Notes under the pieces: model-generated
What the model saw: the letters and a program-made list of their open reading frames with translations, nothing else
Told to the model about the DNA's origin: nothing
Database searches by the model: none
Source of the DNA: Schmidtea polychroa
Taxonomy: Eukaryota
Assembly: GCA_044892525.1 (NCBI GenBank)
Contig: CM097886.1
Location: 93,186,001-93,250,000, forward strand
Direction: 5' to 3'
DNA: 64,000 bases
Shown: piece after piece, positions 715 to 51,411 of the stretch
Layout of the letters: each line of letters starts with the position of its first letter
Numbering within the stretch: the first letter of the stretch is position 1
Translations under genes and position numbers: made by a program

Positions 715-1725
715 TTTGGACTATAGTTTATTGTCTTTCTTTGGAAAACACGTTAATTCTATAACTTCTAAGCCCTATTCTGTAATATTTATTTAATATG
801 AATATGGTGATAGGTAGACCCTCATCATCCAACACAACAATAACATATTGAGTAAAACAATGTACGCCGCATCACAAATTGAGTGTAAGTAAATTTAAAT
901 GGTATTGTAGAGAACTCGCTATCTGCTTTCTCAACTTTACTGGTTCCTATATATCTACTGAGTATGAAATAAACAAAAGACGGTTGTTTTCAAATATATA
1001 TTTATAATAAAAGATTTGCCAAAAACTTAAATCAATTTCTTGCTATTCGATTCAAAATTTCCAGTAACTGCAATAGAATTGTGTAGGCAAATTATGTATG
1101 TGTGAATGTTATATTATCCTTGCTGTGTTGCGTGCAGTAGTTAGACTTTTTTGTTGTATCCTTCTTATTTTTTAATCTAACGAGGATTCACCTTCTTAGA
1201 TATTAAAAGAGTTGTTAGTTACGAAAATAAGGGTTATATTTAGTTGTTAAGTAAATTATGGTGTAACATTAAGTAATAAATAATAATTAGGTAAATTAAG
1301 GATAAGTAAATTAAAGTTAAAAATTTCAAATATGTAAATTTAGGTTCAAAATTTTAAATTAAGTAATCAATGGTTCAAATTTTAAATTAAAGTTAAATAA
1401 GTAATAATTAATAAAGTAATAATTAATAAAGTATTAATTAATAAAGTAATAATAAAGTAATAATTTTTAAACAAGTAAAGTAATGTAATAAGTAAATTAA
1501 AGTAAGATTTTTAAATTTATTAACAAAAAGTTAGAATAATAATCAATGTTTGAGAAATAAAAATTTAAAATGAAAGTTTTTATGAAATAAATTTTAAAGT
1601 CAATTTTTAATGTAAATTTTAATGGAATAATTTTTTAAGTTAATTTGTATGAAATATTGTTTTAAGATTATTTTAAATACAAATTTCAATGAAATATTTT
1701 TCAATGTCAAATGAAAATTTTAATG

Positions 1726-1760
<35 letters not shown>

Positions 1761-1800
1761 TTCAAAATATAATATTAATATTAATAAAAATAATAATAAT

Positions 1801-1847
<47 letters not shown>

Positions 1848-2468
1848 TAATCATAATAATTCAACAGTTACCAACAATCGGTTACTAAATATTTTTAACT
1901 AGGTGCTAACAAATAACTATTTATTGAATGCAATTTCTACTTTGCAATAATAAGTCAGTAGTTATCATTTAAAAGAAGAATGTTTTGTAAATTAGAATTC
2001 ATTACTCTTTCATTGTAATTTAAATTATCCTCAATTCCACGTGGTGTTTTAAAGTGGTTGAGTTGACAGTTATTCATTTTTTGATGAAAATCAACATTTT
2101 TGTTAAATTTAGACATTTTGAAAAGGTTTTTCTACTGATTGTAATTAAAATTATTTTTGAAGACAAATAAAAAAAATTAATTTGAAAAAGACATTTCATA
2201 AAATACAATGAAGAATATTTAGTTGGTTGTAAGTAGTTAGTTGTAAGTATCTGGTTGTTTGAGTTATTTAGTACATGGTATCATGTTGTAAGTATTTGGT
2301 ACTTATTTATTAGCACCTAGTTAAAAATATTTAGTAACCGATTGTTGGTAACTGTTGAATTATTATTATTTTTATTATTATTATTATAATTATTTTTATT
2401 AATATTATTTTTTGAATATTATTATTATTATTATAATTATCTTTATTAATATTAATATTATTTTTTAA

Positions 2469-2499
<31 letters not shown>

Positions 2500-5035
2500 C
2501 CATTAAAATTTTCATTAAAAATTATTTTTGAAAATTATTTCATTAAAATTTCCATAAAAAATTAACTTAAAAATTTATTCCATTTAAAATTCCATTAAAA
2601 CTAAGCTTAAAAAATATTCCATTAAAATTAACATTGAAAAATGACTTTAAAAATTATTTCATAAAAATTTTCATTTTAAATTTTTATTTCTCAAATATTG
2701 ATTATTATTCTAACTTTTTGTTAATAAATTTTAAAATCTTACTTTAATTTACTCATTACATTACTTTACTTATTTAAAAATTATTACTTTAATTTACTTA
2801 TTTAACTTTAATTTAAAATTTGAACCATTGATTACCTAATTTAAAATTTTGAACCATAAATTTATATATTTGAAATTTTTAACTTTAATTTACTTATCCT
2901 TTATTTACCTAATTATCATTTATTACTTAATGTTACACCATAATTTACTTAACAACTAAATATAACCCTTATTTTCATATTTAACCAATAATTTCATGTG
3001 GTCATCTGGTCCTAAGTACTTGGTATCTAGTTGACAGTGCTTAGTACTAGGTACCTAGTTGCTGCTTGTTTTTGGTTGTTAGTACTTGGTATCTAAGTTA
3101 GTATCTAATTTGGTATCGTAAGTTACTGGTAGATGATACTAAGTTGTTGGTATCTGATTGTTGGTTTGTTGTTAAATTATTATTATTAAATATAATTATT
3201 AAAATTTGTATTTGAAAAATATTTCATAAAAATAAAATTATCTTAAAAGATTATTCCATAAAAATTTTCAATAAAAATTATTTAAAAAAATTTTATTTCT
3301 CAGGAGCTGTCGATTATTCAAACTTTTTGTTAATAAATTTTAAAATCTTACTTTAATTTAATTATTTAAAAATTAATACTTTAATTTACTTATTTAACTT
3401 TAATTTAAAATTTTTGACCATTGATTACTTAATTTTAAAAATTTGGACCTTAATTAACTTTAATTTAATTTTTGGAACCTTAATTTACCTTTTTTAACCA
3501 TAATTTACTTTAATTTAAAATTTTGAACCTTAAATAACTTATCTAGACCATAATTTACTTTAATTTTAAAATTGGGACCATAATTAACTCATTGATTACT
3601 TTAATTCAATTATTAGACCCATAATTTACTTTAATTTAAAATTTCGACCTTAATTTACTTATTTGAGCCCATTGATAACTTTAAATGAAATATTTAGACC
3701 TTAATTATCTTTTATTAAAAAATTTAAACCTTAATTTACTTATTGAGACCATAATTTACTTTAATTTTAAAATTTAGACCATAATTAATTTATTTGAATC
3801 CATTGATTACTTTAATTTAATTATTAGACCCATAATTTGCTGTAATTCATTTTTTAGACCATATTTTAATTTAATTTAAAAATCTGAGCCCACAATTTAC
3901 TGTAATTCATTTTTTAGACCATATTTTAATTTAATTTAAAAATCTGAGCCAATAATTTGCTATAATTAATTTTTTAGACCCTTAATTTACTTTAATTCAT
4001 AAATTTACCATGCTTTTTTATTGAAGACCACCTTTTTCTATTGAAAATCCCAGGACCAAGGAGACCCACCTTAATTTACTTGGGAAAATCCTTGGCTTTT
4101 TTATTGAAGACCGCCTTTTTCTATTGAAAATATCCTGAGACCTTAAATTACCATGGTTTTTTTAGTGGTAATTCAAATTTGTATTGAAAATCCCAGGACA
4201 ATGGAGACTCCTCACTATAGTCTGAAAAATTCCATGCTTTTTTAGTGTAAACAGATTTTTGTATTGAAAATCCCATGACCGTGTGATTGACGTTATCTGA
4301 TAATTAAATCATTGCCATTNNNNNNNNNNNNNNNNNNNNNNNNNNNNNNNNNNNNNNNNNNNNNNNNNNNNNNNNNNNNNNNNNNNNNNNNNNNNNNNNN
4401 NNNNNNNNNNNNNNNNNNNNNNNNNNNNNNNNNNNNNNNNNNNNNNNNNNNNNNNNNNNNNNNNNNNNNNNNNNNNNNNNNNNNNNNNNNNNNNNNNNNN
4501 NNNNNNNNNNNNNNNNNNNNNNNNNNNNNNNNNNNNNNNNNNNNNNNNNNNNNNNNNNNNNNNNNNNNNNNNNNNNNNNNNNNNATAATTGTTTCAGCCA
4601 ATTGAAAATTTAAAGCCCAAAAGTATTGATAAAACAAAATAATAAAAATAATCGGTATAAACATTGTATTTATTTAAGATCCTCAAATTTATTATTTGAC
4701 AATTATAAACATTGTGACAAAAATATTAACATTTCATCTCCTAGCAACGGTTTCCAAAGCTGTATTGTTTAGCATTTAATAGGGAAATATCAGTGAGAAA
4801 TATCACAAATTTATCCAGGAAGGTTTGGCATTGTTGCTTATTGTAAGTTTTATTTGATTGTTTGTTTTATTGTATTCGAAATGGTCTTATTTAGTTGCGT
4901 AACTGCTGTTGCAAGGGTTTGCATGACAAGCGCAATTTGCTGCTGTCTAAATATCATCAAGCAATTCCAAATCATTTCTTTATTCCCATATCTGGTCTCT
5001 AGAATTTATGAAGCCAAGGAATCACTGGAGTGAAG
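715..5035 (+). repeat. Left arm of a giant inverted repeat; AT-rich subrepeats, (AAT)n tracts and an N-gap
   Basis: tttggactatag at 715 is the reverse complement of ctatagtccaaa ending at 13794. The match runs inward to ...cactggagtgaag at 5035, pairing with cttcactccagtg at 9027. Confidence 0.9.
1223..2976. repeat. Nested foldback (long internal inverted repeat) inside the left arm; counterpart at about 11255-13287
   Basis: gaaaataagggttatatttagttgttaag at 1223 pairs with cttaacaactaaatataacccttattttc ending at 2976. An inner pair at 1878-1917 / 2305-2345 flanks a unique loop. Confidence 0.8.
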
Positions 5036-5230
5036 GTTTTCTGTGAGTTCATTATTTGATAAATATTCATATTCCGTATATAATTTAACTATTCATATGC
5101 CGATAACTCCATATGTCGTCTAATAAATCATGAATTTCATCGGGAATATTCATATCAACCTCCAATTTATATCCATATGGTAAATTCTCTAGGTTTGATG
5201 ATTTACACTCTTCTAGAATGGTGTCCTAAT

Positions 5231-6584
5231 CAGTGGCGGATTTAGATTTTGGTGCTTGGGGGCGAGGAAAATTTTCAGGGGGCGCCACAAATTATGAAGA
5301 TGGTACTACTTATTTTCGCGAGTATTGATTGAATACTAATATTATTAAAAAGCATTATATTCAGTAAATTTATTCTAGTAAATTTATTGATGTAACAAAC
5401 ATACAAGTTTTTTTATTATTTAAATTGCTTCCTGCGTGATTTCATTGAAGCAAAACGATTTATAGTCGATTTAAAATCAATGTTCTCAGCCAGTTCGCGT
5501 TCTATTGAAATTAATGCTAATCCAGACAGACGTTCGTTTGTCATTGTTGATCGCAAATAATTTTTGATGATTTTCAGTCTACTGAAACTTCTTTCAGCAG
5601 TAGCAGATGTAACAGGAAGAGTCAAGTATATTTTAAAAAGAATTGCCAAATTGGGAAGTCCTGGTGCCATCTGTTTTTCAACCAAGAAAGGCAGCACCTC
5701 TTTAAGTTGTAGTTCACAAGATAGTAATGGGCGTATTGATGCATACACGTATTTGAAAGTATCATTCTAGGATTGCTTCTTCAATATTAATATCATTTTT
5801 GTAAATGTCGCATAAATTTTGAAAAGATTCTTTATTTTCTTCTGATATTTGTGATGGATCAAGACAGGAGAATAAAGCAACAGTGTTATGAAAATCATTA
5901 AAACGTTCATCTAGTTGTGTTACAAGTGTATCCAAGACAGTGAAATACGTTTCACATTTGAAGCGTGTAGTTGGATCATCAACCCTTTCATATCTGTTAA
6001 GTTCACCTGCCATGCGTTTCCTTTTTGCAACTCGCTTTTCTTTAAATTCTGTTTCAACATCTAATGAGGAACAATTTTTGATAATAAATGATTTTACAGC
6101 AACATTTAGACTTTCAAAAGCTTTATCACTTCTCATATCAGCAAACTTATTTCTGGCAACATAAATCAATTGTTTTGCAAAAGCAATATCAATGTCCTTT
6201 GATTGCAAATAGTTTGATAACACAAAGATATTATCTAACAGCTTTTATAGAAATAGCATCAGAAAAACAAAAGTATTTTGTTATCAAAATAGATAGTCCC
6301 ATAGCTTCTGCTCTGACACTTCCTTTGTGTTCTTTTGATTCCCCAATATTTATATCTTCTAGAGTAGATATAATAACGGAGAATGATCCAACAACTGCAT
6401 CAACTGCATGCTTTCGGCTTGCCCATCTTGTATCAGAAAGTCGTTTTAGAGTATCTACTGTCGATTCATATCGAGACTTTTGATGTTCTTCGAGAATATG
6501 TAGTCGTGGTAGACTTGATGTAAGGAAACTATACAACTTTTCTGTTGTACCAAAAAACAACTGAACATCATTGTTAAGAGACAT
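5231..6584 (-). mobile_element. 5'-truncated hAT transposon (ZMYM1/Tip100-like transposase pseudogene) with its 3' terminus
   Basis: SDTRWASR motif and C-terminal dimerisation motif LTLPVTSATAERSFSRLKIIKNYLRSTMTNERLSGLALISIE, interrupted by a stop and a frameshift. Terminal CAGTGGCGGATTT at 5231. Confidence 0.9.
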
Positions 6585-7244
6585 TGCTTCAATATTATTT
6601 TTGGGGGATTCTGCATATTTATATGTTTTAGGATGTTTTATACAATTTTACACTTTTATATACTAAACTTTGTTCAAATTATTGTCAAAATAAAAATAGA
6701 TTTTTTATGGATAAATGGCTCACATCAAAGAATTGTTAAATTAATAAATTAATGTAAATTTATTAAAAATATAATAAAATTGAAATAAAATAACTTACCA
6801 TTTCCTGAATCTCTTTTCATATTTAAAATAAAATGTCTTGGGAAATATTTGTAAATTTGAATTTAAAGTAAATAATAAAATAAAACACAATTTAAAAATA
6901 AAATGAAAAGATTGATTTTAACTTTATAAATAATCAATTTATGTTTTTATTTTAATTCAATTGAATATTATTTTAATATTTCAATAGTAACGCAATAATT
7001 TGTTTGTCAAAAAAGTCCAAATTGATAATTATTATAGTTAGATTTATGTACAAACACTTTACAAGCTTAAAAACTTCAAACAGTCGCTCTTCACTGGAGC
7101 TATGTAATATTATTAATATGATGCAGCATAACAGCTCGAGTTGCTTAAATCCAGTTGAACTTTGTCTGTGTACAAAACTGTGTACAAAAATGTACAAAAC
7201 TGTAATATTAGAAAAAATTCATAAAATTATCTTTGGGGGGGCGA

Positions 7245-9026: not shown

Positions 9027-11729
9027 CTTCACTCCAGTGATTCCTTGGCTTCATAAATTCTAGAGAGCAGATATGGGAATAAAGAAATGATTTGGAATTG
9101 CTTGATGATATTTAGACAGCAGCAAATTGCGCTTGTCATGCAAACCCTTGCAACAGCAGTTACGCAACTAAATAAGACCATTTCGAATACAATAAAACAA
9201 ACAATCAAATAAAACTTACAATAAGCAACAATGCCAAACCTTCCTGGATAAATTTGTGATATTTCTCACTGATATTTCCCTATTAAATGCTAAACAATAC
9301 AGCTTTGGAAACCGTTGCTAGGAGATGAAATGTTAATATTTTTGTCACAATGTTTATAATTGTCAAATAATAAATTTGAGGATCTTAAATAAATACAATG
9401 TTTATACCGATTATTTTTATTATTTTGTTTTATCGATACTTTTGGGCTTTAAATTTTCAATTGGCTGAAACAATTATNNNNNNNNNNNNNNNNNNNNNNN
9501 NNNNNNNNNNNNNNNNNNNNNNNNNNNNNNNNNNNNNNNNNNNNNNNNNNNNNNNNNNNNNNNNNNNNNNNNNNNNNNNNNNNNNNNNNNNNNNNNNNNN
9601 NNNNNNNNNNNNNNNNNNNNNNNNNNNNNNNNNNNNNNNNNNNNNNNNNNNNNNNNNNNNNNNNNNNNNNNNNNNNNNNNNNNNNNNNNNNNNNNNNNNN
9701 NNNNNNNNNNNNNNNNNNNNNNNNNNNNNNNNNNNNNNNNNNNNNNNNNNNNNNNNNNNNNNNNNNNNNNNNNNNNNNNNNNNNNNNNNNNNNNNNNNNN
9801 NNNNNNNNNNNNNNNNNNNNNNNAATGGCAATGATTTAATTATCAGATAACGTCAATCACAGGTCATGGGATTTTCAATACAAAAATCTGTTTACACTAA
9901 AAAAGCATGGAATTTTTCAGACTATAGTGAGGAGTCTCCATTGTCCTGGGATTTTCAATACAAATTTGAATTACCACTAAAAAAACCATGGTAATTTAAG
10001 GTCTCAGGATATTTTCAATAGAAAAAGGCGGTCTTCAATAAAAAAGCCAAGGATTTTCCCAAGTAAATTAAGGTGGGTCTCCTTGGTCCTGGGATTTTCA
10101 ATAGGAAAAGGTGGTCTTCAATAAAAAAGCATGGTAAATTTATGAATTAAAGTAAATTAAGGGTCTAAAAAATGAATTATAGCAAATTATTGGCTCAGAT
10201 TTTTAAATTAAATTAAAATATGGTCTAAAAAATGAATTACAGTAAATTGTGGGCTCAGATTTTTAAATTAAATTAAAATATGGTCTAAAAATGAATTACA
10301 GCAAATTATGGGTCTAATAATTAAATTAAAGTAATCAATGGATTCAAATAAATTAATTATGGTCTAAATTTTAAAATTAAAGTAAATTATGGTCTCAATA
10401 AGTAAATTAAGGTTTAAATTTTTTAATTAAAGATAATTAAGGTCTAAATATTTCATTTAAAGTTATCAATGGGCTCAAATAAGTAAATTAAGGTCGAAAT
10501 TTTAAATTAAAGTAAATTATGGGTCTAATAATTGAATTAAAGTAATCAATGAGTTAATTATGGTCCCAATTTTAAAATTAAAGTAAATTATGGTCTAGAT
10601 AAGTTAATTAAGGTTCAAAATTTTAAATTAAAGTAAATTATGGTTAAAAAAGGTAAATTAAGGTTCCAAAAATTAAATTAAAGTTAATTAAGGTCCAAAT
10701 TTTTAAAATTAAGTAATCAATGGTCAAAAATTTTAAATTCAAGTTAAATAAGTAAATTAAAGTATTAATTTTTAAATAATTAAATTAAAGTAAGATTTTA
10801 AAATTTATTAACAAAAAGTTTGAATAATCGACAGCTCCTGAGAAATAAAATTTTTTTAAATAATTTTTATTGAAAATTTTTATGGAATAATCTTTTAAGA
10901 TAATTTAATTTTTATGAAATATTTTTCAAATACAAATTTTAATAATTATATTTAATAATAATAATTTAACAACAAACCAACAATCAGATACCAAGTACAA
11001 GATACCAACAACTTAGTATCATCTACCAGTAACTTACGATACCAAATTAGATACCAACTTAGATACCAAGTACTAACAACCAAAAACAAGCAGCAACTAG
11101 GTACCAGATACCCAGTACTTACAACCGACAACAACCAGGTACCAAGCATTATCAACTAAGTACTAACAACCAAGTTCGAAATACCTAGTACTAAGCACTG
11201 TCAACTAGATACCAAGTACTTAGGCCAGATGACCACATGAAATTATTGGTTAAATATGAAAATAAGGGTTATATTTAGTTGTTAAGTAAATTATGGTGTA
11301 ACATTAAGTAATAAATGATAATTAGGTAAATTAAAGAGAAGTAAATTAAAGTTAAAAATTTCAAATATATAAATTTATGGTTCAAAATTTTAAATTAGGT
11401 AATCAATGGTTCAAATTTTAAATTAAAGTTAAATACGTAAATTAAAGTAATAATTTTTAAATAAGTAAAGTAATGTAATGAGTAAATTAAAGTAAGATTT
11501 TAAAATTTATTAACAAAAAGTTAGAATAATAATCAATATTTGAGAAATAAAAATTTAAAATTAAAATTTTTATGAAATAATTTTTAAAGTCATTTTTCAA
11601 TGTAAATTTTAATGGAATATTTTTTAAGCTTAGTTTTAATGGAATTTTAAAAAATTTTTTAAGTTAATTTTTTATGAAAATTTTAATGAAATAATTTTCA
11701 AAAATAATTTTTAATGAAAATTTTAATGG

Positions 11730-11805
<76 letters not shown>

Positions 11806-12658
11806 TAAAATGATGATTGCTTGGTAGCAGCATTTATTATTTAAAACAATAAAATGATAATTTAAGCCTTTTGCTGCAAATAATGTATTTAATGAAAGAA
11901 TTTTCGACTATACGATTGACAAGGACTATCGTATAGTCGAAAATTCTTTTATTAAATACATTATTTGCAGCAAAAGGCTTANNNNNNNNNNNNNNNNNNN
12001 NNNNNNNNNNNNNNNNNNNNNNNNNNNNNNNNNNNNNNNNNNNNNNNNNNNNNNNNNNNNNNNNNNNNNNNNNNNNNNNNNNNNNNNNNNNNNNNNNNNN
12101 NNNNNNNNNNNNNNNNNNNNNNNNNNNNNNNNNNNNNNNNNNNNNNNNNNNNNNNNNNNNNNAATCGGTTACTAAATATTTTTAACTAGGTGCTAACAAA
12201 TAAGTACCAAATACTTACAACATGATACCATGTACTAAATAACTCAAACAACCAGATACTTACAACTAACTACTTACAACCAACTAAATATTCTTCATTG
12301 TATTTTATGAAATGTCTTTTTCAAATTAATTTTTTTTATTTGTCTTCAAAAATAATTTTAATTACAATCAGTAGAAAAACCTTTTCAAAATGTCTAAATT
12401 TAACAAAAATGTTGATTTTCATCAAAAAATGAATAACTGTCAACTCAACCACTTTAAAACACCACGTGGAATTTAGGATAATTTAAATTACAATGAAAGA
12501 GTAATGAATTCTAATTTACAAAACATTCTTCTTTTAAATGATAACTACTGACTTATTATTGCAAAGTAGAAATTGCATTCAATAAATAGTTATTTGTTAG
12601 CACCTAGTTAAAAATATTTAGTAACCGATTGTTGGTAACTGTTGAATTATTATGATTA

Positions 12659-12705
<47 letters not shown>

Positions 12706-12733
12706 TTTATTAATATTAATATTATATTTTGAA

Positions 12734-12783
<50 letters not shown>

Positions 12784-13794
12784 CATTAAAATTTTCATTT
12801 GACATTGAAAAATATTTCATTGAAATTTGTATTTAAAATAATCTTAAAACAATATTTCATACAAATTTACTTAAAAAATTATTCCATTAAAATTTGCATT
12901 AAAAATTGACTTTAAAATTTATTTCATAAAAACTTTCATTTTAAATTTTTATTTCTCAAACATTGATTATTATTCTAACTTTTTGTTAATAAATTTAAAA
13001 ATCTTACTTTAATTTACTTATTACATTACTTTACTTGTTTAAAAATTATTACTTTATTATTACTTTATTAATTAATACTTTATTAATTATTACTTTATTA
13101 ATTATTACTTATTTAACTTTAATTTAAAATTTGAACCATTGATTACTTAATTTAAAATTTTGAACCTAAATTTACATATTTGAAATTTTTAACTTTAATT
13201 TACTTATCCTTAATTTACCTAATTATTATTTATTACTTAATGTTACACCATAATTTACTTAACAACTAAATATAACCCTTATTTTCATAACTAACAACTC
13301 TTTTAATATCTAAGAAGGTGAATCCTCGTTAGATTAAAAAATAAGAAGGATACAACAAAAAAGTCTAACTACTGCACGCAACACAGCAAGGATAATATAA
13401 CATTCACACATACATAATTTGCCTACACAATTCTATTGCAGTTACTGGAAATTTTGAATCGAATAGCAAGAAATTGATTTAAGTTTTTGGCAAATCTTTT
13501 ATTATAAATATATATTTGAAAACAACCGTCTTTTGTTTATTTCATACTCAGTAGATATATAGGAACCAGTAAAGTTGAGAAAGCAGATAGCGAGTTCTCT
13601 ACAATACCATTTAAATTTTCTTACACTCAATTTGTGATGCGGCGTACATTGTTTTACTCAATATGTTATTGTTGTGTTGGATGATGAGGGTCTACCTATC
13701 ACCATATTCATATTAAATAAATATTACAGAATAGGGCTTAGAAGTTATAGAATTAACGTGTTTTCCAAAGAAAGACAATAAACTATAGTCCAAA
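9027..13794 (-). repeat. Right arm of the giant inverted repeat
   Basis: Reverse complement of 715-5035 with scattered substitutions and indels. The N-gap at 9478-9823 has the same flanks as the gap at 4320-4584. Confidence 0.9.
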
Positions 13795-14523: not shown

Positions 14524-14690
14524 AACGATGCCTAATATTTTTAGAACGATGCCTAATATTTTTAGAATGATTACGTCATAATTTTAGAACGATGTCTATT
14601 ATTTTTAGAACGATGCCTAATATTTTTAGAACGATTACGTCATACTTTTAGAACGATGCCTAATATTTTAAGAACGATGCCTAATATTTA
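14524..14690 (+). repeat. Minisatellite with a ~21-bp unit (aacgatgcctaatatttttag)
   Basis: About seven head-to-tail units with minor variants and no unique spacers. Confidence 0.85.
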
Positions 14691-14785
14691 ATATAAAATG
14701 TCTTTTTTCTTTTTATGTATATTATGGGTATTATGTGTTTACTAATATTTCTGTAAAATTAACCATTCTCCCTTCCCTACCGAGC

Positions 14786-16435
14786 ATGGGAGGGTGCTGC
14801 TATGGGCCCCAGCACTCTTTTAAAGGGGGAAACCAAGGGAACAGGATAAAGAACAGAGCTAAGTCAAGGGTGAGGGCGAGCGAGGTAATGGGTTTTGAAT
14901 TGCGATGGGAAAGTATAAATCAAATATTTGTCAAAACTCTTACTGGTAAGACAATTACTCTTGACGTTGAATTGAATGGCACGATTGAAAAGGTAAAAGG
15001 AAAAATTCAGGACAAAGAAGGAATTCCGGTAAATTATCAAAGGTTAGTCTACGCAGGGAAGCAATTAGAAAATAAAAGAATATTGAATGATTATAGCATA
15101 CAAGTAGGTTCGACACTTCATTTGTCACTCAGGCTGTGCGGTGGCAATGACGAAGAGATTTTAGAAGAAGAATTGTGGAAAAAGAGAATGAAAAAAGGAA
15201 AATTAACGAGATTTAGAAACAAGATTCTGAATGATATAAAGGGTAAGGATGTTAGCAAATGGTTGGAGGAATATGAAGATCAAAAGGAGAGTCTAGATGA
15301 AGAATTAAGAGATCTAAGAACGATCAGTGAAAAATTGCAAAGATTGGACATCACTGCAATCTTAGATAAAGACCTGGAGGAGATCGAGGAAAAACATCAA
15401 ATAATTGGGGCATTGATGGAAAGAAAAGCAAATCAATCTTTTATGGAAAAGAAGGAAAAGGTGAATGATGATACCATCAAGAAGAATAATGCAGTGCATA
15501 AAAGAAAACTGGAAAGTCTACAGAAAATTACAATACCTGTCTTTGAAGGCAAGATGAAAGAGTACGAACCATGGCAAGCAGCTTTTACGGCGTGTGTTGA
15601 CGAAGCGGAAGGTGATGAGGTTGAAAAGATGTTTCACCTGCACAAGTACCTTCACGGAGAGCCATTAAAGTTAATTGAAAATCTAGGATATTCGACAGAG
15701 GCTTATCAAATGGCAAAAGAGAAGTTGGATAGGCGATATGGTGGGGATGAAAGGATATATTTATCAATGTTAGAGGAGATGGAACAGTTCAGGCCAATTC
15801 GAGAAGGAGATTTGAAGAATCTAGACTTATTTGTTGGATTATTAGAAACAGTCACCGTGCGATTTAAATCCACTGGGAAAGATTCCGAGTTAAATACTGG
15901 ATATCTTTTTCAAAAGTGTTTGGGCAAGTTAACAACGGATCTTGTGTATAAATGGAGGAAAGAGAAAATAGAAAAGGAATTGCGGGAGACGATAGAGAAT
16001 TTGAGAAGATGGATACAACAAGAAGCGGAGATCCTAAGGTCCACTAACGAGGTCGTGTATGGGACTCAACCATGCACCAGGGCTTATGATGGGTCAAGAG
16101 TAGAAGGTGTGTCTGTAGAAAGAGAAAGCTTCAATCCAGGAGGTTGGACGCATTTTACGGGGCAACCAGATGGCAAAGTTAAAAGTGGAACGGTTATACA
16201 GGTGAATAACTCTAATGGCTATAGATCAGAGTGTGTACAATGTGGTGGTCAACATTACCTAGACCAATGTGACAAGTTTAAGCAACTCACAATTTCAGAA
16301 AGGAAAAGAGTCATCGAAGAAAAGAAACTGTGCCGGAATTGCTTCAAAAGAAATCACATGGCCAAGGAATGTCGTAAAGAATCTTTCTGCAAGGTTACCG
16401 GATGTAATCAAAGACACAGCGAATTATTAAATTAA
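14786..16435 (+). CDS. gag: Ubiquitin-Gag fusion protein (ubiquitin domain 14918-15145, DUF1759-like BEL/Pao Gag, C-terminal Cys/His knuckles)
   Basis: [18 protein letters not shown]...[12 protein letters not shown] is about 55/76 identical to ubiquitin by manual alignment. [18 protein letters not shown] and [17 protein letters not shown] match DUF1759 Gag; [27 protein letters not shown] and [10 protein letters not shown] are the knuckles. The ATG at 14786 has a strong Kozak context; the ORF track starts at 14735. Confidence 0.9.
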
Positions 16436-16444
16436 AACGCATCA

Positions 16445-17574
16445 ATGAGGACGGTTCAGAGTTATTTTGCGGTAACTGAAATGTTCAATGACGAGTTACG
16501 GGCATCTCGAGGAATTGAGGACACGCCACTCGACAGGAGTAAGGCATCTAATGAAGAGCAAGGAGCTCAGAGTCATTTAGATGGGCAAATATTCAATTCT
16601 GGAAGAACTAACGAATTAGTTAACGTTATGACAATCACACAAAATGTTCAAGGAAAAATGAATACAGGGGAAAAGCAAGATGAGGCTTGCCGGGCTGGTG
16701 AGATCATAAAATTATCCGACGATAAAATTGTGGAACCGAAGACAACGGAAGTGATGAGTAATTGGGAAAAAGACAAACCAGAATCAGAGGATTTAACGCC
16801 CGAGGCGGCGGTTAATGATATGCAGGTCGACGAATGGGAAGTTATTCGATTAAAAGAAGAACGTGATAATGTAAAAGGGGCAGAAGACTCCAGAGGGGAG
16901 AGGCAAAACAAGGAGACCAGTATGGTATATGGAAATCATGGGAAACTGTACGGGATAATGATCAAGGGGCCAAGGAAGTTTTGGAAAAATTGAACGAATC
17001 ATCGAACAGTTTAAAACAACAAGGATCACTGGAACTCGCTTGCACGCCTCTAAAGATGCACATGAAAGACAAGGTGTCAATTAGGGAATCGAAACACGAA
17101 GCAATCAAAGAACGACTTTGTAGGATGCTTATAAAACCATTAAGTGAAAACTGGTCACTAAATGAAATGCAACAGGGAAAAGGGTGGAATATTGAATTGG
17201 CGAAAAAGGGAGAAAGAATAATGGAGAGATTACACCTAAACAAACTGAACAGAGACAGCTGCTTGGCCGAGTATAGCGATGGTGGGTGGAGAATCCACAA
17301 TGATGTTTCAAAAAAGGTGCGTGGTGCGGCGGCTTATATAATACAAAGATGGGTTTGTGAGGGTTATTGGAGATTGAGCCAAAATGCAGAAAATGGAGGG
17401 CGAAGGGATAAAATGGCGAGGGAAGTGCAAGAAATGAAGGGGAAAAGGGATAAGCTGACACGGGAATGTATCTTCAAATTATGTTGGAGTATAAAAGAAG
17501 AAGGAGAAGCTGATGGGGATTTGAGATTGACACTAAGGTGTCAAGGGGGGGGGGGGGAGGATGGTAAATTATGA
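16445..17574 (+). pseudogene. Degenerate pol-region remnant of the BEL element (ORFs 16445-16993 and 16981-17574)
   Basis: The first ORF is in frame with Gag after a single TAA. The second weakly resembles the BEL pre-RT region ([15 protein letters not shown]...EY). No catalytic motifs are recognisable. Confidence 0.45.
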
Positions 17575-18440
17575 GCTCAATGCGCGTCTGTGTGCGCGTT
17601 GTATTGTGTGATGGGTTTGTGTGCGCACACAGACGCGAGCAATGTCATTTTTGTGTTGGGTTGTTAGTTTATCTCGCGTCTGTGTGCGCTTTCTTTTCTT
17701 TGTTTTTGGCTTGTGTGCGCACACAGACGCGAGCAAGAGGTATGGCAATTTTATTAAGTAGTTTTGTAATTTTTTTTGATTTAGAAGTTAATTAGATTTT
17801 TGAATGTGAATGGATTTAGAGAGTTGTTAATGGTATCGATTTCGGTTTTTTGGAGTTTATGATTTTTCGGATAAAAGATGGCTGCTTTTAATGAAGAAAT
17901 TTATGAATCTGATAACTCAATGGAAATTGGAAATACTACCAACGAAACTGATGGTTCATTTTTTATGATCCCAAGAGATCCTGATAACTTTAATGGTGTT
18001 TTTGGCCAACTAATATTAAATTTATTTGGTGGATGGATTTCCGTTGGTATTCGATGCAATAATTGTGATGTAGTAGCTACACAAAGAAAGGTTCCAGATA
18101 AAATGATTGAGAAGAGTACAGCTACAAGATTGTTTAATATTACTGAAAGTACTGGAGGTGTTATGACTGGTATGATCCCTAATTATCGATCTCAAGTATG
18201 TCGTGCACAAATGGAAGCAGCTCGATTTAGATATAAACATGGATATGAAATGCCTTGTGACATAATATGTCGTTCTATTGCGGATATTAAGCAGCTTTCT
18301 ACCCAATCAACTGAGACGCAACCATTAGGTTGTTCAATGATGGCATTATCTTATGGTATTGAAATGGACAAATTGTTATTATTCAAAACCGGCTCTATGG
18401 ATGAAAATAAAATTATTATTCGTGATCCTGAATTTAAACA
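17562..18440 (+). repeat. 3' LTR of BEL copy A (879 bp)
   Basis: Starts TGGTAAATT right after the PPT and ends AATTTAAACA (imperfect inverted termini). Homologous to 56616-57414 and 59496-60361. Confidence 0.85.
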
Positions 18441-18447
18441 ATTATAG
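17878..18447 (+). CDS. PSMA6: LTR-borne ORF: novel acidic leader fused to a truncated proteasome subunit alpha type-6
   Basis: GGWISVGIR...TQRKVPDKM...LFNITE..G.VMTGM...RSQV.RA..EAA.F.YK.GYEMP.D..C..IADI.Q..TQ..E..PLGCSM aligns with PSMA6 (roughly 55% to the human sequence as I recall it, over ~107 aa; homology 18028-18390). Lacks the N-terminal gate and most of the C-terminal half. The stop codon lies just outside the LTR. Confidence 0.9.
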   Translation: MAAFNEEIYESDNSMEIGNTTNETDGSFFMIPRDPDNFNGVFGQLILNLFGGWISVGIRCNNCDVVATQRKVPDKMIEKSTATRLFNITESTGGVMTGMIPNYRSQVCRAQMEAARFRYKHGYEMPCDIICRSIADIKQLSTQSTETQPLGCSMMALSYGIEMDKLLLFKTGSMDENKIIIRDPEFKQL

Positions 18448-19275
18448 CAATCCAATAATTGTTTAAACAATTTAATGCTAAAATTTAATATCAACAAAAA
18501 ATATCAAAAATTAATTTCCACAGATAAAATTTTCAGTTTTAATATTTTAACATTTCAAATTCTTGCTACAGTAGCATGGCCCAACATAACTGCTTGTTAC
18601 GCACTTGTATTCTAGTGATCATGGTTGTTATTCGGTGTTTTATTGATTGCAGCTTCCAAATCTCGGATCATCTTCGATTATTGTAGCAATAAGTGCGGAG
18701 GAAAGTAAAATCACTACGAAAGAGTGCTTCAACAGTCCTAATGTCAATTCCTGGATTTCATATCTCAAATCGAATACAGCAGAATATTGAAATAAATGAA
18801 AAGAAGTAAAAAATATTATTTGACGAAGACAGAGAAATGAATATAATTTACAAATATATTTTTACATTTATTACCAACGCTAAAATAGATATAACGATAG
18901 AAACATGTACAAATACGATACATAAATAATTCTAAAACTAAAAGTCATTCAATCGTAATTTATTACGAAGCTTAATAATCCAAATAATCATTAAACAAAT
19001 ACACAACATAGTTGGGATTAGAATAAGCAATATTTGATACAAACTTATTTGCGGTTTTCCCAAATCTAAAACAGATATAAGTAAACATGATGGTAAAAAA
19101 CAAAGATAATGAAGAACTATAATATAATACAAAATTTCGTTACTAATTATAAATTATTAAAAACTCTCAAAAAGAACTTTATCGAAATTTGTTTTTATCA
19201 CAAGGGAATTATAATAGAAAAATATAATTAATTAAAAAATATAATTAATAATATAATTAAGGTAAATCCAGAGGG

Positions 19276-19705
19276 CTTTAACAAAGATGTTATTTTGAAT
19301 ATGTTTTAATTATCGGTATTGAATTTCACCAATAATAAAATTCTATCAAGAAAGACAATGCGCATAAAGTAGATATTACTAAAATATTTGTAGGATGCCT
19401 GTAAATAATACCTATTCGAAATTATATAATATTTATGCATGTTGAATTTGTATAATTAATCTTATTAAAAAGATTGAAAATTTTGAAATCTCAAAATGTG
19501 TTAAAAAATTACGAATTATTTTGAATATTTTTTAATTATCGGTATTGAAGTTCACGAATAAAGATACTCATAATAAAATTCTATCAAGAAAAGAAAGACA
19601 AAGATAAAGCGTAAATAATTAATATTGCTAAAATATTTGTAGGATGCCTGTAAATAATACCTATTCGAAATTATATAATATTTATGCATGTTGAATTTGT
19701 ATAAT
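19276..19705 (+). repeat. Local tandem duplication of a ~245-bp unit (also at about 61215-61640)
   Basis: The block ...aaatatttgtaggatgcctgtaaataatacctattcgaaatt... occurs twice. Confidence 0.75.
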
Positions 19706-19899
19706 TGTTTTTTTTAAGAGATAAGATTTTTAGGACATGTAATAAACGATGAAGGAATACACGCTAATGACAATGAAATTATCGTGATTGAAAATTTCGA
19801 AATCTCAAAATGTTTAAAAAAAAATTATTATAGTTGATTTATAAAGAAAATAATAATATGTATTCAAAACCACTCGTAAAATTGTGCGATATAAATCAA

Positions 19900-19975
19900 A
19901 CAGAAAATATGTGGACCAATGAATGCGAAGAGTCCTTTCAAGAATTAAAGAAAGGATTAATAACAGCTGATAATA
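19900..19975 (+). pseudogene. Tiny Ty3/Gypsy RT-RNase H connection fragment (duplicated at about 61830-61900)
   Basis: Reads MWTNECEESFQELKKGLITA, matching the WxxxCxxAFxxLKxxLxxA motif. Confidence 0.6.
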
Positions 19976-21219
19976 AATTCTATATCTGCTTTTAATTGTA
20001 ATCAACAGTTTTAATTTAAATTGTATAAATAAATAAGAAATGCCAAAAATAGAATTCAATTTTATTTAAAATATGCATATAATCAATTATTGAAATAAGA
20101 ATTGACTTAATTACAGATTTAATATTCGAAATCTAAATAAATCTGGATTCTCGCCAATACTGCTTGTTGAGAGAAAGGAAATATTTCTTTCAATTCGTTC
20201 ATTGAATTTAATTGATCAATTCATAATTTAATTGTAAATATTTAAGAAAAAACGATATAGAATAATTCAACAAAAAACAATAATTCGAATAGACAAAAGC
20301 AAAAATTGGAAAATTAGTTTTATGATTACCAATTATGCCCACATTTCAGCATGATACAGAAAGAAACTGATATAGCGTTTTTATCTTTAGGCGAATGAGG
20401 TCATTTAATAGTTTGATGCATAAGTTCCGAAATCCTCATTTAAAATTCATATTTAATTAAAACTCTTTTCCTATATATGATGTATTTACAATTTAATTAT
20501 TAAATTAATATTTATTATTTGGAAAGTTAGGGACACTAAACAAATATCTCTCGCGCAGAATTTCTTTTAGTTGATTTCAATTAAAATTTTTCCAATAAAA
20601 TAAAATAATCATTAAATAGAATTAATTTAAAAAATAAGGTTTTCCTGCAAAAACAAGAATAAAAGAATTAATATTTTGAAGTGTCACAAAATTTATTATT
20701 ATTGTTATTGATATAATTATTNNNNNNNNNNNNNNNNNNNNNNNNNNNNNNNNNNNNNNNNNNNNNNNNNNNNNNNNNNNNNNNNNNNNNNNNNNNNNNN
20801 NNNNNNNNNNNNNNNNNNNNNNNNNNNNNNNNNNNNNNNNNNNNNNNNNTATAGTGATGATTAAATTTAAACAATTAAATGATAATTTAAGCCTTTTGTT
20901 GCGATTAATATATTTAATATAAATGAATAAATTGTCGACTATTAGATAGGCTTTGACAATCGAAATTTTTTTCATTTGTATTAAATATTGATATAATAAT
21001 TGTCAGAAATATTTTGGTTAATATCAATATTATTATTATTATTATTATTATTATTGATAAAATTACTATTAATTTATTATTGAAAAATTGTTAAGTTAAA
21101 CTCTGTTTATTAAGGATGATTAACTCAAACCCCCCTCATTTAGTAACCCATATTCACCATATCAAAATAGCTAAAATTCAGAATGGGAAATGTAATAAAT
21201 GAGATAATCAGAAATATAA

Positions 21220-24200
21220 TCACATACTTGTATAATTTGATAACAGTTTTATGGAGTAATCCGCTGTGATCCATTTATATTCAGCACCATTATATAGCTT
21301 GTCAAGATCCTCCTTTACTCCATGACAGCTCACGGATTTGATGGAATCTTTTACGTATAATATTGTCAGGTATTTCTGATATGTAGGAATGATGTACTGA
21401 TTCGGATCGTTCTTCACGATCTCTAAAACATTATAAAATGAAGTTATCGGAACTGGAAAGAAAGAGATTGAAATGACCGAAAAGTCGGTGAAATTGGAAA
21501 ACTTAAGAAAGATATTGAAGTAAAATGGAGCATTAATTAAAATATTAGAAACACGAAATGGAGAACAATTGAGAAATGATAAAAGTAGTAGAATATGTCC
21601 CCTCCAGGATATCATCCTCCCTCCCGTGTGGAATAATACAATATTAAACTAAAAAATATTTTGTTTGTTTAAAAAATTTTTGAAAAAATTTTAAGTTCCA
21701 AACACAGGAAATTTTTCGAAAAAAATGATGAATCATACTGTCGGACCAAGTCCTAAAAACAACTTAAAGAATCTTCTTCTTGTCTTCTTAATTTTTTGTT
21801 TTACCTAGCACCAAGGTTAAAATTCAGCTGAGACGATCCTATAAAACAATCAAACCTTACTAAGAATCGCTATTCGAACATCTTTTTCACTATATACTTC
21901 GATAGCATCACTATCATCATCAGGTTACTTACATTCACGACGGATGAATAACTATACTATATTGATAATATATAAACAAATTATAAAATCTATAAATTTT
22001 AAATTATAAATAAAAATTTTAAACAATTATTTTTTTTTAAATTATTTTAAAATTATTTTAATTATTTAACATAACTAATATTCAATATACATCAATATAC
22101 AAAAACTTAATTAAAAACATTCAACACACACTGTATTCTGCACATTGATTTTAGGATTAAAAGTCCTTATCAATAATGCTTCACATATCACACACTTAAA
22201 ACAATTATCAAAATTTTTTGATAAGATTTTAAAATCAGACATTCCTAATTCTCTCATGCAGACTTTATTGTGATCCTTAATATTGGACATGATGATATTG
22301 ATTCTATCGAAATATATAGTGAAAAAGATGTACAAATGGTGATTTTTATTAATAAAATCTTTACCGTGTTTATTTAGGTATTTATTTAAAAATCTTAATA
22401 ATTATATTAAACATTAAATAAAACAAAATTAAAAATTAATAAAACACGAATAATAAAATAAGAAAATCAAGCAGTTCCACATGAAAGTATAAAATAAATA
22501 GCTGAAAAAGACAATAGCAGAAATACCACCTTATCCATGGGATAATTCAATCAATGAGGAACAAAAAGAAAAGAAAGAATTTACTTCAAAACAAATAAAT
22601 AAACTAACCAATCAAAATGATAGTAATTTGAAAGTTAAAAATGATCACAAAAAACGATCAAAAACACAACAGATCAATCCTGATTGTCGAATACATTCAC
22701 AAAAAACTATATAAGGCAGTCTTAGCAGGCACTACCGCTTTTTATACATCAAACGTTTGCGCCTTCAAATTTTAGGCGAATACTTTTTGTGATCTAAAAA
22801 AACCAATTTTCTGACGATTAGCTAAACCGTAATTTCAAATTCATCAAAACTCGTATAACCCGATTTTTGGATTTTATTTTTTTCAATCACTTATACGAGG
22901 GGTGGGGAACCTGCGGCCTGCCGGAGCTTCATGTGTGGCCTCCGGAGCCTTATCGAAATCAATCTTAATTTATATAAAAAACCATGAATTTTGAGGATTT
23001 ACAAATAAAATACTCGTAACTACTGAACTGTATATATACCGAACTGTACAAAGAAGAAAATATAAAAGTCAATCATTCACATCCATAAATACAAAATGTA
23101 TGTAGACGAATAAAAAAGATTATTGAGCCCTTATTTGTGAAATGATGACTTATTTGCATCATTTTTTCCATTCAGAAATAATAAACATTTTCAAGAATAT
23201 TTCGTACAGCCGCATTTTTCAAATCTGGAGACTGATTATAAATATTGTTTTAATTAATAACTGTATATAAACAAAAGATTTAAAATGAAATTAATTAATG
23301 TTAAAATACTTTTTGACTGCGGCCCCATTTGGAGGCGACAAATTTCAATGTGGCCTTAGAAATATAAGAAATATAAAAGTTCCCCAACTTCGGACTGTAT
23401 TCACAGCACAATCGGTAATAATTTTATTGCTATTTCTATTTTTATAGGTAATATTTATGCATGTGTAATCCAATTTAATTTTCATTAAAATTATTTACTA
23501 GATTCGTTCTTCCTCATATTTATTAACTAAACTTTTAGTATTTTATAATTATCATTTTATCTAATGTAGGTCCTAAACTTCATAGGTTTACTTAGTTTGT
23601 ATTTTTAAATATATAGCGGTGGAACTACCGTGAATTGACTTATTTTCCTGCAGGCTACTTTGCGATGTTTTCTCGCTATCGGTAGGATGGTTGCAGCGAG
23701 ATCTCCATACTGGGATCGCGTCGTAGATACTGCTGTTCCTTTTTATTAAAATCTTGCATCGAAAATAGTTTTAGTGAGCTAAAAATCTTAAAAATTCGCA
23801 TATCCAATATCATTTCCAATAATATAACCCATATTTCTCTCACAGACGGTTCCAAATATATTTAGAGAACACCAGAATTCATTTTTAACCAAAATTATGA
23901 AGAATAAAATAATGATAAATAAAATTACTCTCATTGATTCGCCATTGGATTTCCCCCCGCCAATATTCCGAATTCTTACAATAAAGGCTAAACGGGACTT
24001 TATCATCATTGGTTCTCATATCTACATTTTGATTGGAAGGTTTAATAAATGTTGCGCATTTGAAACCGCGATCCAGCACATCTTGCACAATTGATTCCGC
24101 CCTGATAAACAATCAATTGCTCATAAATGTGCAAATAATAACTGAGATTGGGCCGCATTATATTCGATGCATCCTTTCTTACCATTGTCCCACATACATT

Positions 24201-25269: not shown

Positions 25270-26165
25270 AAGAAACTCCGCCTAGAATTGCGTTTCAAGT
25301 TCACCAACGGTATTCAAATTCATCGATTTAACATAGTTCTTCCATTTACTAAAAAATTCTTCAATGGGATTCAATTACGGACTATATGGCGGAAGAAATA
25401 AAATATTGTGTCCATATTCCGCTATAAAATTTTCAACGCTCAAAACCCTGTGGAAAGCCACATTATCCATAATTATCGTATTATTTTCCATGTTCAACTC
25501 TTTCATTTTTCGAAATAGCTCTGTCAAGAATTCAATATCTACATTATAAGTTCGATTTTGTGTCTTATGAAAAACTATTCCGCCCTTAGATATCCCAGCA
25601 CAAACCGAATAGTTTCTAGACCTTATTGCTCTTACCACTTTCCTGGTTGGAGTCTCCAAAAATTTTCTTCCATAATTGAGTGTAAGTGAACAACTCACTC
25701 CCATTTCATCGACAAAAATCGTTTTATCTTCATCAAGTAGAAGATATGCGTTCCCATAATCATATCTCCTAGTTATATTATCAGGACTGTTTCTAGCCTC
25801 AGGGATCAAGCTTACCCGTTTTAAGGAATAATTCAGGCTCTGTAAAGATCTCTCTATCGTTGGCAAAGATACAACTATTCCCTTTTCGGTGTAAATGCGA
25901 CTTTTAAGCGACTTTAAAGTAATAGAAACTTCATTTTCGATTTCATTAACTATGAATGTTTCAACATTTCAGTCAATTTTCCTTGCTTTTGGGACTCTCC
26001 GTTTAATAGATTCGGTTCTTCCAAATCGTCTGTACGTTCGTAAAACACTTCTAATTGTCTCATAGTTCAACTCCAGGGCCGCCGCAATTTTTTGAGGCGA
26101 TTTTCCAGCCTCATGTTTATTTATTATAGATCTTCCTGTTTCATCTGACATTTGCCTTTTCCTGT
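25270..26165 (-). mobile_element. Tc1/IS630-like (DD34E) transposase pseudogene, 5' end replaced by the duplicated hAT block
   Basis: HTH-like ELNYETIRSVLRTYRRFGR, FVDEMG, IMDNVAFH and LPPYSP*LNPIE with 34 residues between D and E. Confidence 0.85.
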
Positions 26166-28279
26166 TTAAGCAACTCGAGTTGTTATGCTGCATCATATTA
26201 ATAATATTACATAGCTCCAGTGAAGAGCGACTGTTTGAAGTTTTTAAGCTTGTAAAGTGTTTGTACATAAATCCTACCATAATAATTGTCAATTTGGACT
26301 TTTTTGACAAACAAATTATTGCGTTACTATTGAAATATTAAAATAATATTCAATTGAATTAAAATAAAAACATAAATTGATTATTTATAAAGTTAAAATC
26401 AATCTTTTCATTTTATTTTTAAATTGTGTTTTATTTTATTATTTACTTTAAATTCAAATTTACAAATATTTCCCAAGACATTTTATTTTAAATATGAAAA
26501 GAGATTCAGGAAATGGTAAGTTATTTTATTTCAATTTATTTATATTTTTAATAAATTTACATTCATTTATTATTTTAACAATTCTTTGATGTGAGCCATT
26601 TATCCATAAAAAATCTATTTTTATTTTGACAATAATTTGAACAAAGTTTAGTATATAAAAGTGTAAAATTGTATAAAACATCCTAAAACATATAAATATG
26701 CAGAATCCCTAAAAAATAATATTGAAGCAATGTCTCTTAACAATGATGTTCAGTTGTTTTTTGGTACAACAGAAAAGTTGTATAGTTTCCTTACATCAAG
26801 TCAACCACGACTACATATTCTCGAAGAACATCAGAAGTCTCGATATGAATCGACAGTAGATACTCTAAAACGACTTTCTGATACAAGATGGGCAAGCCGA
26901 AAACATGCAGTGATGCAGTTGTTGGATCATTCTCCGCTATTATATCTACTCTAGAAGATATAAATATTGGGGAATCAAAAGAACACAAAGGAAGTGTCAG
27001 AGCAGAAGCTATGGGACTATCTATTTTGATAACAAAATACTCTTGTTTTTCTGATGCTATTTCTATAAAAGCTGTTAGATAATATCTTTGTGTTATCAAA
27101 CTATTTGCAACGAAAGGACATTGATATTGCTTTTGCAAAACAATTGATTTATGTTGCCAGAAATAAGTTTGCTGATATGAGAAGTGATAAAGCTTTTGAA
27201 AGTCTAAATGTTGCTGTAAAATCATTTATTATCAAAAATTGTTCCTCATTAGATGTTGAAACAGAATTTAAAGAAAAGCGAGTTGCAAAAAGGAAACGCA
27301 TGGCAGGTGAACTTAACAGATATGAAAGGGTTGATGATCCAACTACACGCTTCAAATGTGAAACGTATTTCACTGTCTTGGATACACTTGTAACACAACT
27401 AGATGAACGTTTTAATGATTTTCATAACACTGTTGCTTTATTCTCCTGTCTTGATCCATCACAAATATCAGAAGAAAATAAAGAATCTTTTCAAAATTTA
27501 TGCGACATTTACAAAAATGATATTAATATTGAAGAAGCAATCCTAGAATGATACTTTCAAATACGTGTATGCATCAATACGCCCATTACTATCTTGTGAA
27601 CTACAACTTAAAGAGGTGCTGCCTTTCTTGGTTGAAAAACAGATGGCACCAGGACTTCCCAATTTGGCAATTCTTTTTAAAATATACTTGACTCTTCCTG
27701 TTACATCTGCTACTGCTGAAAGAAGTTTCAGTAGACTGAAAATCATCAAAAATTATTTGCGATCAACAATGACAAACGAACGTCTGTCTGGATTAGCATT
27801 AATTTCAATAGAACGCGAACTGGCTGAGAACATTGATTTTAAATCGACTATAAATCGTTTTGCTTCAATGAAATCACGCAGGAAGCAATTTAAATAATAA
27901 AAAAACTTGTATGTTTGTTACATCAATAAATTTACTAGAATAAATTTACTGAATATAATGCTTTTTAATAATATTAGTATTCAATCAATACTCGCGAAAA
28001 TAAGTAGTACCATCTTCATAATTTGTGGCGCCCCCTGAAAATTTTCCTCGCCCCCAAGCACCAAAATCTAAATCCGCCACTGATTAGGACACCATTCTAG
28101 AAGAGTGTAAATCATCAAACCTAGAGAATTTACCATATGGATATAAATTGGAGGTTGATATGAATATTCCCGATGAAATTCATGATTTATTAGACGACAT
28201 ATGGAGTTATCGGCATATGAATAGTTAAATTATATATGGAATATGAATATTTATCAAATAATGAACTCACAGAAAACCT
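26164..28279 (+). repeat. Inverted 2.1-kb duplicate of 5033-7149 containing the hAT transposase pseudogene (26730-27897; terminus about 28082)
   Basis: Near-identical reverse complement with the same stop and frameshift. Junctions at ttgcttaaa and agaaaacct. Confidence 0.92.
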
Positions 28280-32465: not shown

Positions 32466-33275
32466 TTATTTATATGGCGGAAGAAATAAAATATTGTGTC
32501 CATATTCCGCTATAAAATTTTCAACGCTCAAAACCCTGTGTAAAGCCACATTATCCATAATTATCGTATTATTTTCCATGTTCAACTCTTTCATTTTTCG
32601 AAATAGCTCTGTCAAGAATTCAATATCTCCATTATAAGTTCGATTTTGTGTCTTATGAAAAACTATTCCGCCCTTAGATATCCCGGCACAAACCGAATAG
32701 TTTCTAGACCTTATTGCTCTTACCACTTTCCTGGTTGGAGTCTCCAAAAATTTTCTTCCATAATTGAGTGTAAGTGAACAACTCACTCCCATTTCATCGA
32801 CAAAAATCGTTTTATCTTCATCAAGTAGAAGATATGCGTTCCCATAATCATATCTCCTAGTTATATTATCAGGACTGTTTCTAGCCTCAGGGATCAAGCT
32901 TACCCGTTTTAAGGAATAATTCAGGCTCTTTAAAGATCTCTCTATCGTTGGCAAAGATACAACTATTCCCTTTTCGGTGTAAATGCGACTTTTAAGCGAC
33001 TTTAAAGTAATAGAAACTTCATTTTCGATTTCATTAACTATGAATGTTTCAACATTTCAATCAATTTTCCTTGCTTTTGGGACTCTCCGTTTAATAGATT
33101 CGGTTCTTCCAAATCGTCTGTACGTTCGTAAAACACTTCTAATTGTCTCATAGTTCAACTCCAGGGCCGCCGCAATTTCTTGAGGCGATTTTCCAGCCTC
33201 ATGTTTATTTATTATAGATCTTCCTGTTTCATCTGACATTTGCCTTTTCCTGTTATTCATAGGGCTTTTACTCAA
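32466..33275 (-). mobile_element. Second Tc1/IS630-like transposase copy, 3'-truncated, between (TA)n arrays
   Basis: Near-identical to 25375-26165, keeps the original N-terminus (MSKSPMNNRKRQ) and breaks off at LPPY. Confidence 0.85.
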
Positions 33276-41539: not shown

Positions 41540-41669
41540 GAGTCTTATTATAAAAGATCTACATATGCTGAATTTTAATGCTACCTGGAGCTCTACGTAA
41601 ATATAGATTTTAAGATATATATAAATATTTATATATGATTTTTCCCCCGGGGAAGTCTGTAATTGTCAT

Positions 41670-51351: not shown

Positions 51352-51411
51352 ATGTTCATTAGCATTCTGTTTTCGATGATAAAATTGTTGTCTAAATATT
51401 CTTGTTGTCTA

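Follow-up and report, generated by a model that had tools for sequence, protein, structure and literature searches.

The element and its copies in the window

The window analyzed here, a stretch of 64,000 nt from Schmidtea polychroa (GCA_044892525.1, contig CM097886.1, positions 93,186,001 to 93,250,000 of the forward strand), contains two copies, A and B, of a BEL/Pao LTR retrotransposon, identified as such by a DUF1759 Gag with Cys/His knuckles, TG...CA LTRs, a primer binding site (PBS), a polypurine tract and a 5-bp target duplication, as well as by the Pol domains of its relatives. In copy A, the ubiquitin-Gag frame (14672–16435, +) comprises a ubiquitin (14921–15145, ending in LRLCGG), the DUF1759 Gag core (15542–15964) and terminal Cys/His knuckles, and no pol follows. 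The polypurine tract (17543–17561, +), recognized by its sequence and by other copies with an identical context, is immediately followed by the TG of the 879-nt 3′ LTR (17562–18440, +), whose terminal CA lies at 18440. The same ends were found in 5′ LTRs, and also in solo LTRs flanked by 5-bp target duplications (perfect at 4 of 30 loci, with one further case within a simple repeat). A G+C-rich inverted repeat is present twice at the head of this LTR (17583–17637 and 17675–17731) as well as in sister LTR families with other cargo, and is a candidate cis element.

Copy B consists of a 5′ LTR with a cut 5′ end (56616–57414, +), the PBS for tRNA-Met (57415–57432, +), an internally deleted ubiquitin-Gag frame (57459–59342, +) and a 3′ LTR with the same mosaic (59496–60361, +). 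The LTR frame reads through the PBS and stops 34 codons beyond it, out of register with the ubiquitin-Gag frame and short of Gag. Both copies lack pol and can be regarded as a derivative that has lost the common register of LTR frame and Gag. Six relatives with pol were retrieved by their Pao peptidase match and were 92–95% identical in the Gag region; the two that were scanned carried RT, Peptidase_A17, an integrase zinc domain and DUF5641. Among the BEL/Pao superfamilies, Flow is one with described families (PMC3118150). The sequence of the PBS agrees with the 3′ end of tRNA-Met genes of this genome; at C1:79.33 Mb, such genes stand in a tandem array with a 454-nt period (1228 exact matches genome-wide). 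The pol-less derivative also contains an internal segment of about 1 kb (16436–17574), in which two frames, of 185 and 234 codons, are open; no Pfam match was obtained within 16451–17470, a part that resembles the 3′ end of copies with pol only weakly. Among 30 loci with the internal leader, 27 had PSMA6 in the 5′ LTR, two lacked a 5′ LTR and one had other upstream sequence.

Copies A and B are not independent insertions: about 3.6 kb including the 3′ flank are common to both at 98.9% identity, so that they are duplicates of one insertion. The segmental duplication links 17138–20721 with 59068–62647 and 22768–23677 with 63090–64000, at a spacing of about 42 kb, and further copies of the same insertion, some in tandem LTR-internal arrays, are located at C2:93.1–93.4 Mb and 97.5 Mb. 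The window also holds a large inverted duplication (715–4319 and 9824–13794) with AAT microsatellites and nested palindromes, possibly a DNA element of palindromic type, a Tc1/mariner-type transposase fragment in two copies (25375–26166 and 32466–33254, −), and an unannotated 2.1-kb repeat in inverted orientation (5034–7149 and 26165–28279, 99% identical). In a Gypsy-type element (39377–51408, −), the knuckles of Gag are separated from the protease by a fusion glycoprotein of Monjiviricetes-like type, a layout that the portion of the source consulted describes for the planarian Burro elements (PMC6431247).

Spliced host mRNA pieces in the LTR

The ORF at 17878–18447 matches the Pfam Proteasome family (78.9 bits, residues 52–168), and its nearest PDB structures are those of PSMA6. 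In agreement with the initial annotation, the PSMA6-like fragment is LTR sequence, as it lies within the TG...CA ends after the polypurine tract and these ends recur in solo and 5′ LTRs; in copy B the piece (56998–57363 in the 5′ LTR) is present in both LTRs, which differ by 9 mismatches in 799 nt, and the 5′ LTR is followed by the PBS. The piece in copy A (18024–18389, +) corresponds to host codons ~33–153 of 246, with nt 463–828 of the LTR aligning without gaps to nt 96–461 of the host PSMA6 CDS (340 of 366 nt identical, 93%). The host gene has four exons, and the aligned part of the spliced host CDS spans one intron, of 43 nt, which is precisely removed in the LTR; the fragment is thus intron-free, as had been claimed. 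Judging from this alignment, the piece is a recent capture from an mRNA of the host lineage. Genome-wide, at least 520 spliced PSMA6 copies were counted as exact matches of a 23-nt pattern over the splice junction, a lower bound.

The remainder of the ORF is not PSMA6. The LTR tail (18390–18440, +) carries AATAAA at 18406–18411 as a candidate poly(A) signal, and flanking DNA (18441–18447, +) provides the last residues and the stop, which in other 3′ or solo LTRs is reached after anything from 1 to more than 50 codons. The terminal IIIRDPEFKQL had been taken for the PSMA6 C-terminal motif, retained after an internal deletion. That proposal fails, because the end of the ORF is made of LTR tail and flanking DNA: against the 3′ half of the host PSMA6 CDS, the last 51 LTR bases score no better than shuffles (48% of 1000 shuffles score as high), and only 8 of 27 nt match the motif. 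An AATAAA located 24–44 nt before the LTR end occurred in 34 of 79 loci vs. 22 of 711 background windows, and we tentatively read the one in the tail as a poly(A) signal.

Upstream of the PSMA6 piece, the 'acidic leader' was initially described as a replacement for the gate-forming N-terminus. There is no support for a purpose-built leader; it consists of spliced pieces of the mRNA of a host RNF126-like E3 ligase gene (17887–18034, +; 81–90% identical to the host exons, one intron removed). The leader also matches P0014, a protein of 220 residues with a zinc ribbon and a RING (PF14369 + RING), an architecture that we take to be RNF126/RNF115-like. At the junction of the two host sequences (18030–18038, +), a 9-nt word common to both host mRNAs is placed in the same frame and has drifted in copy A; a shared word of this length was reached in 2.5e−5 of random junctions, and the junction sequence has 223 exact matches genome-wide. 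In a sister family, the exon-exon junction of the RNF126-like sequence has 10 nt in common with the LTR end and PBS, so that microhomology was present at both of the two junctions tested (9 and 10 nt).

The family was delimited with an exact pattern of LTR end plus PBS, which gave 134 matches; 88 of these were taken, leaving 87 usable loci, or 79 after merging those alike at 99%. The LTR cargo is interchangeable among its members: Pfam matches included Proteasome, EAP30 + Proteasome, Ras + Cpn60_TCP1, DSPc, WD40, RING and SUI1, while PSMA6 was the cargo in at least 21 of the 87 PBS-linked loci and most LTRs carried other pieces. Two sister families occur as solo LTRs, one with PSMA6 codons 13–187 and the other with most of the RNF126-like CDS (164 matches reported). 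In 13 LTRs checked, the ends of the PSMA6 piece varied and its identity to the host protein was 58–85%, with codons ~100–128 present in nearly all LTR matches. Rare cargo was seen at L192, L194 and L210, i.e., a piece without Pfam match that we presume to be actin-like, SUI1, and a core histone piece. One subfamily (L107, L132, L158, L162, L169, and L184) has a 26-codon unit repeated two to four times, in frame, before a shortened PSMA6 piece, and the number of units differs by whole units among loci. Two proteins in the public assembly collection, P0013 and P0015, are EAP30 + PSMA6 chimeras whose matching part has 82% identity with the piece in the window; LTR products of this kind can thus enter protein databases.

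The initial annotation had suggested that half an alpha subunit may serve as a decoy in the assembly of the alpha ring; a decoy acting on this assembly or on the chaperones involved would shield the element's proteins from degradation. Such a role would suit the ubiquitin-proteasome theme of the adjoining RNF126-like and ubiquitin pieces, PSMA6 is a common cargo with a recurring core, and the LTR frame of the window lineage, ending soon after the PBS, could yield a stand-alone product. Set against this, most sister LTRs hold unrelated cargo, and the recurring PSMA6 part adjoins the fixed LTR tail, where descent alone explains its recurrence. The fold is also incomplete at both ends: the N-terminal gate segment and the first helix are absent, the match starting at codon ~33 with RNF126-like sequence upstream, and the end of the piece at codon 153 leaves out the last three strands and three helices, while the RING of the RNF126-like piece is cut as well. 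The predicted model of the piece reached a pLDDT of 44.8 vs. 76.3 for the full-length PSMA6 control, values that rest on shallow alignments of 12–13 sequences (12 common to both) and say little about stability. The divergence of the residues from the host protein, considered below, bears on the same question.

One common frame and its selection

The cargo of different LTRs lies in one frame, the one that reads through the PBS. Upstream of the PBS, an open stretch of at least 100 codons was present in this frame at 41 of the 79 distinct loci, vs. 0 and 1 for the other two frames, and stops numbered 232 vs. 867 and 519. Host Pfam matches were obtained in the read-through frame for 8 of 17 LTR types, while the other five frames gave 2 in 85 translations, one a tandem-repeat artefact and the other genuine, namely a histone piece whose frame differs from that of the RNF126-like piece in the same LTR. 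The cargo frame runs on into ubiquitin-Gag in many copies, and in one of the six pol-bearing copies a single stop-free frame extends from the LTR to beyond the integrase. The first ubiquitin was in the read-through frame at 38 of 64 loci and in another frame at 26 of 64; we read the latter as decay or as non-autonomous lineages. Upstream ATGs were found in mixed frames with no clean first-ATG rule. The ubiquitin end could be read at 64 loci, where it was GG in 55 and the canonical LRLRGG in 8; the window subfamily has LRLCGG, which may weaken cleavage at the ubiquitin. In a divergent subfamily (L109, L117, L118, L126, L129, L167, L176, L199, and L204), whose Gag showed an identity of about 36% in the members read, the PBS is followed by a pair of ubiquitin units, of which the first often has a canonical end.

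To assess selection, we separated singleton variants from those common to two or more lineages after clustering at 99%, which gave 48 lineages for the PSMA6 piece. Singletons in this piece (n = 154) had an omega of 1.04 and included 6 stops, while shared variants (56 nonsynonymous, 22 synonymous; n = 78) had an omega of about 0.73 (p = 0.13) and included no stops vs. 4.5 expected (p = 0.01), in tests made without an outgroup species, on lineages that are non-independent and with shared variants that include recurrent mutation. An earlier clustering at 98%, in which most copies were merged into 21 lineages, gave a shared omega of 0.67 and p = 0.068 for stops. The constraint was stronger further downstream, where shared variants had an omega of 0.47 (p = 0.002) in ubiquitin and of 0.34 and 0.33 (p < 0.001) in two parts of Gag; PSMA6 differed from ubiquitin, the first Gag part and DUF1759 with p = 0.086, 0.054, and 0.019, respectively (Fisher). 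With only marginal differences from ubiquitin and the first Gag part, and an omega of 0.57 (p = 0.096) in the most widely shared class of PSMA6 variants, a weak constraint on residues may persist. Selection thus acts on the frame, ubiquitin and Gag, whereas the residues of PSMA6 appear weakly constrained or free.

These data also weigh on the decoy proposal. The omega of shared PSMA6 variants is below 1, but not significantly so, and the residue divergence from host PSMA6 is indistinguishable from neutral; the window copy differs from the host by 19 nonsynonymous and 3 synonymous changes in 116 codons. Together with the unrelated cargo of most family LTRs, this makes a decoy highly improbable, and the PSMA6 piece is most likely a passenger. 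Other cargo in family LTRs and neutral divergence were among the refuting conditions named in the initial annotation, and on both counts the outcome speaks against the decoy. The inert passenger of the initial annotation is retained in that form, as a possible passenger, while 'inert' needs qualifying, since the reading frame, and not the sequence, is under selection.

If the passenger were carried by pure hitch-hiking, the cargo would sit in an untranslated part of the LTR and its open frame would be a leftover of the host frame. Recent captures of coding sequence would indeed be open in their own frame without selection, and the copies are young. This explanation, however, does not account for different host genes all sharing the frame that continues across the PBS, or for the absence of stops among inherited variants as compared with singletons, and we regard it as very unlikely.

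Another alternative is that the cargo is selected as RNA, with pieces of essential, abundant host mRNAs aiding translation start or shielding the element from piRNA silencing, and with the frame being secondary. The identified cargo is all sense-strand and from housekeeping-type genes, and the RNF126-like sister family retains about 26 nt of host 5′ untranslated sequence along with the host ATG, as might be expected for such a function. On its own, however, selection on RNA leaves the in-frame junctions of unrelated pieces and the lack of inherited stops unexplained, and the nucleotide identity of the cargo to the host decays freely (~90–98%), so that we consider this alternative unlikely.

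Proposed origin and comparison with known systems

In our opinion, the observations are probably best explained by template-switch capture of host sequence into the LTR, where the captured pieces would be kept in frame as a dispensable N-terminus of Gag and PSMA6 would be a frame-keeping passenger. The long frame would begin inside the 5′ LTR, cross the PBS and then a single or double ubiquitin, and enter Gag and, in complete members, Pol. While copying the 5′ end of the RNA, the reverse transcriptase may switch to a co-packaged host mRNA or to the RNA of a sister element, and cargo acquired at this step would therefore end up in both LTRs. Transcription is expected to start upstream of the cargo and to stop near the LTR end, with the cargo probably located within a long R region, and active descendants would derive only from captures whose frame reaches Gag. 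Host deubiquitinases could then cut the arbitrary N-terminus off Gag at the ubiquitin, the weakest step of the proposal; given the ubiquitin ends read here, we put such removal at about even odds. A more general version, in which the transcribed part of the LTR acts as a swappable cassette into which pieces of host mRNAs are repeatedly shuffled, filtered only for frame and neutralised by the captured ubiquitin, seems to us slightly less than evenly likely. In that event, each of the hundreds of solo LTRs would combine a likely promoter with an ATG and a chimeric ORF of host origin that lacks stops, and the family would constitute a self-renewing, frame-selected source of new genes by exon shuffling in an animal genome.

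Apart from this interpretation, LTR cargo is duplicated at each insertion and survives as solo LTRs. The family offers a natural series in which the choice of host mRNAs by reverse transcriptase can be studied, as can the question of whether a retroelement with an acquired ubiquitin may bear an arbitrary N-terminus. There is a practical concern as well: apparent 'genes' resembling PSMA6, RNF126, chaperonin or Rab, which number in the hundreds in this genome, are parts of LTRs and can confound annotation, RNA-seq mapping and RNAi.

Individual features of this arrangement are shared with several known systems. Yeast Ty1 likewise has a gag frame with its start in the 5′ LTR and a PBS inside the coding sequence, but this start is short and its own, and Ty1 has no host cargo and no ubiquitin. 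Maize Bs1 is a further near system, grouped with LTR-mediated retroposition. In planarians, a BEL element has a piece matching YLR075W, presumably RPL10. This element, BEL1_SM of Schmidtea mediterranea (Repbase), has a truncated host gene piece near the ORF start (nt 346–589, YLR075W match), as does the family described here, but the piece is single, in the internal region and not ubiquitin, and LTR cargo is unmentioned in the passages of the source consulted (Abrusan et al. 2013, PMC3597677). Host gene sequence as a fixed part of the LTR is found in Cassandra TRIMs, which, according to the portion of the report consulted, are non-coding elements with one conserved cargo, a 5S rRNA sequence that supplies a promoter, in contrast to the variable protein-coding mosaics found here (bioRxiv 10.1101/2023.07.14.548913). 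In cytopathic pestiviruses, a captured ubiquitin is a polyprotein processing signal, placed, as in this family, in frame ahead of a protein for which a separate N-terminus is required; as far as the consulted sections go, capture there proceeds by recombination of an RNA virus and cleavage was shown, whereas here cleavage is conjectural and the end of ubiquitin often non-canonical (PMC8310069).

In the openly accessible literature that could be searched, we found no description of variable in-frame host coding mosaics in the LTRs of BEL/Pao elements, and none was found in the available passages of PMC11410931 or PMC13317346. The process most similar to the one proposed is LTR-mediated retroposition, which, in the sections consulted of Tan et al. 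2016 (PMC5131818), yields partial spliced mRNAs with microsimilarity at the switch points as well as multi-gene chimeras, with Pao/BEL among the carriers. Intron-less partial mRNAs and microsimilarity at fusion points are common to those retrocopies and to the present family. According to the same sections, the retrocopies replace part of the internal ORFs between the LTRs and the copies are non-autonomous (Tan et al. 2016, PMC5131818), whereas in the present family both LTRs contain the cargo, which is in frame with Gag, present also in pol-bearing copies, and spread as solo LTRs. LTR elements are known to capture genes, as a rule in the region between the LTRs and with loss of genes of their own; in this family, host pieces lie in the LTR itself, in frame with Gag-Pol, and also in copies that have kept pol.
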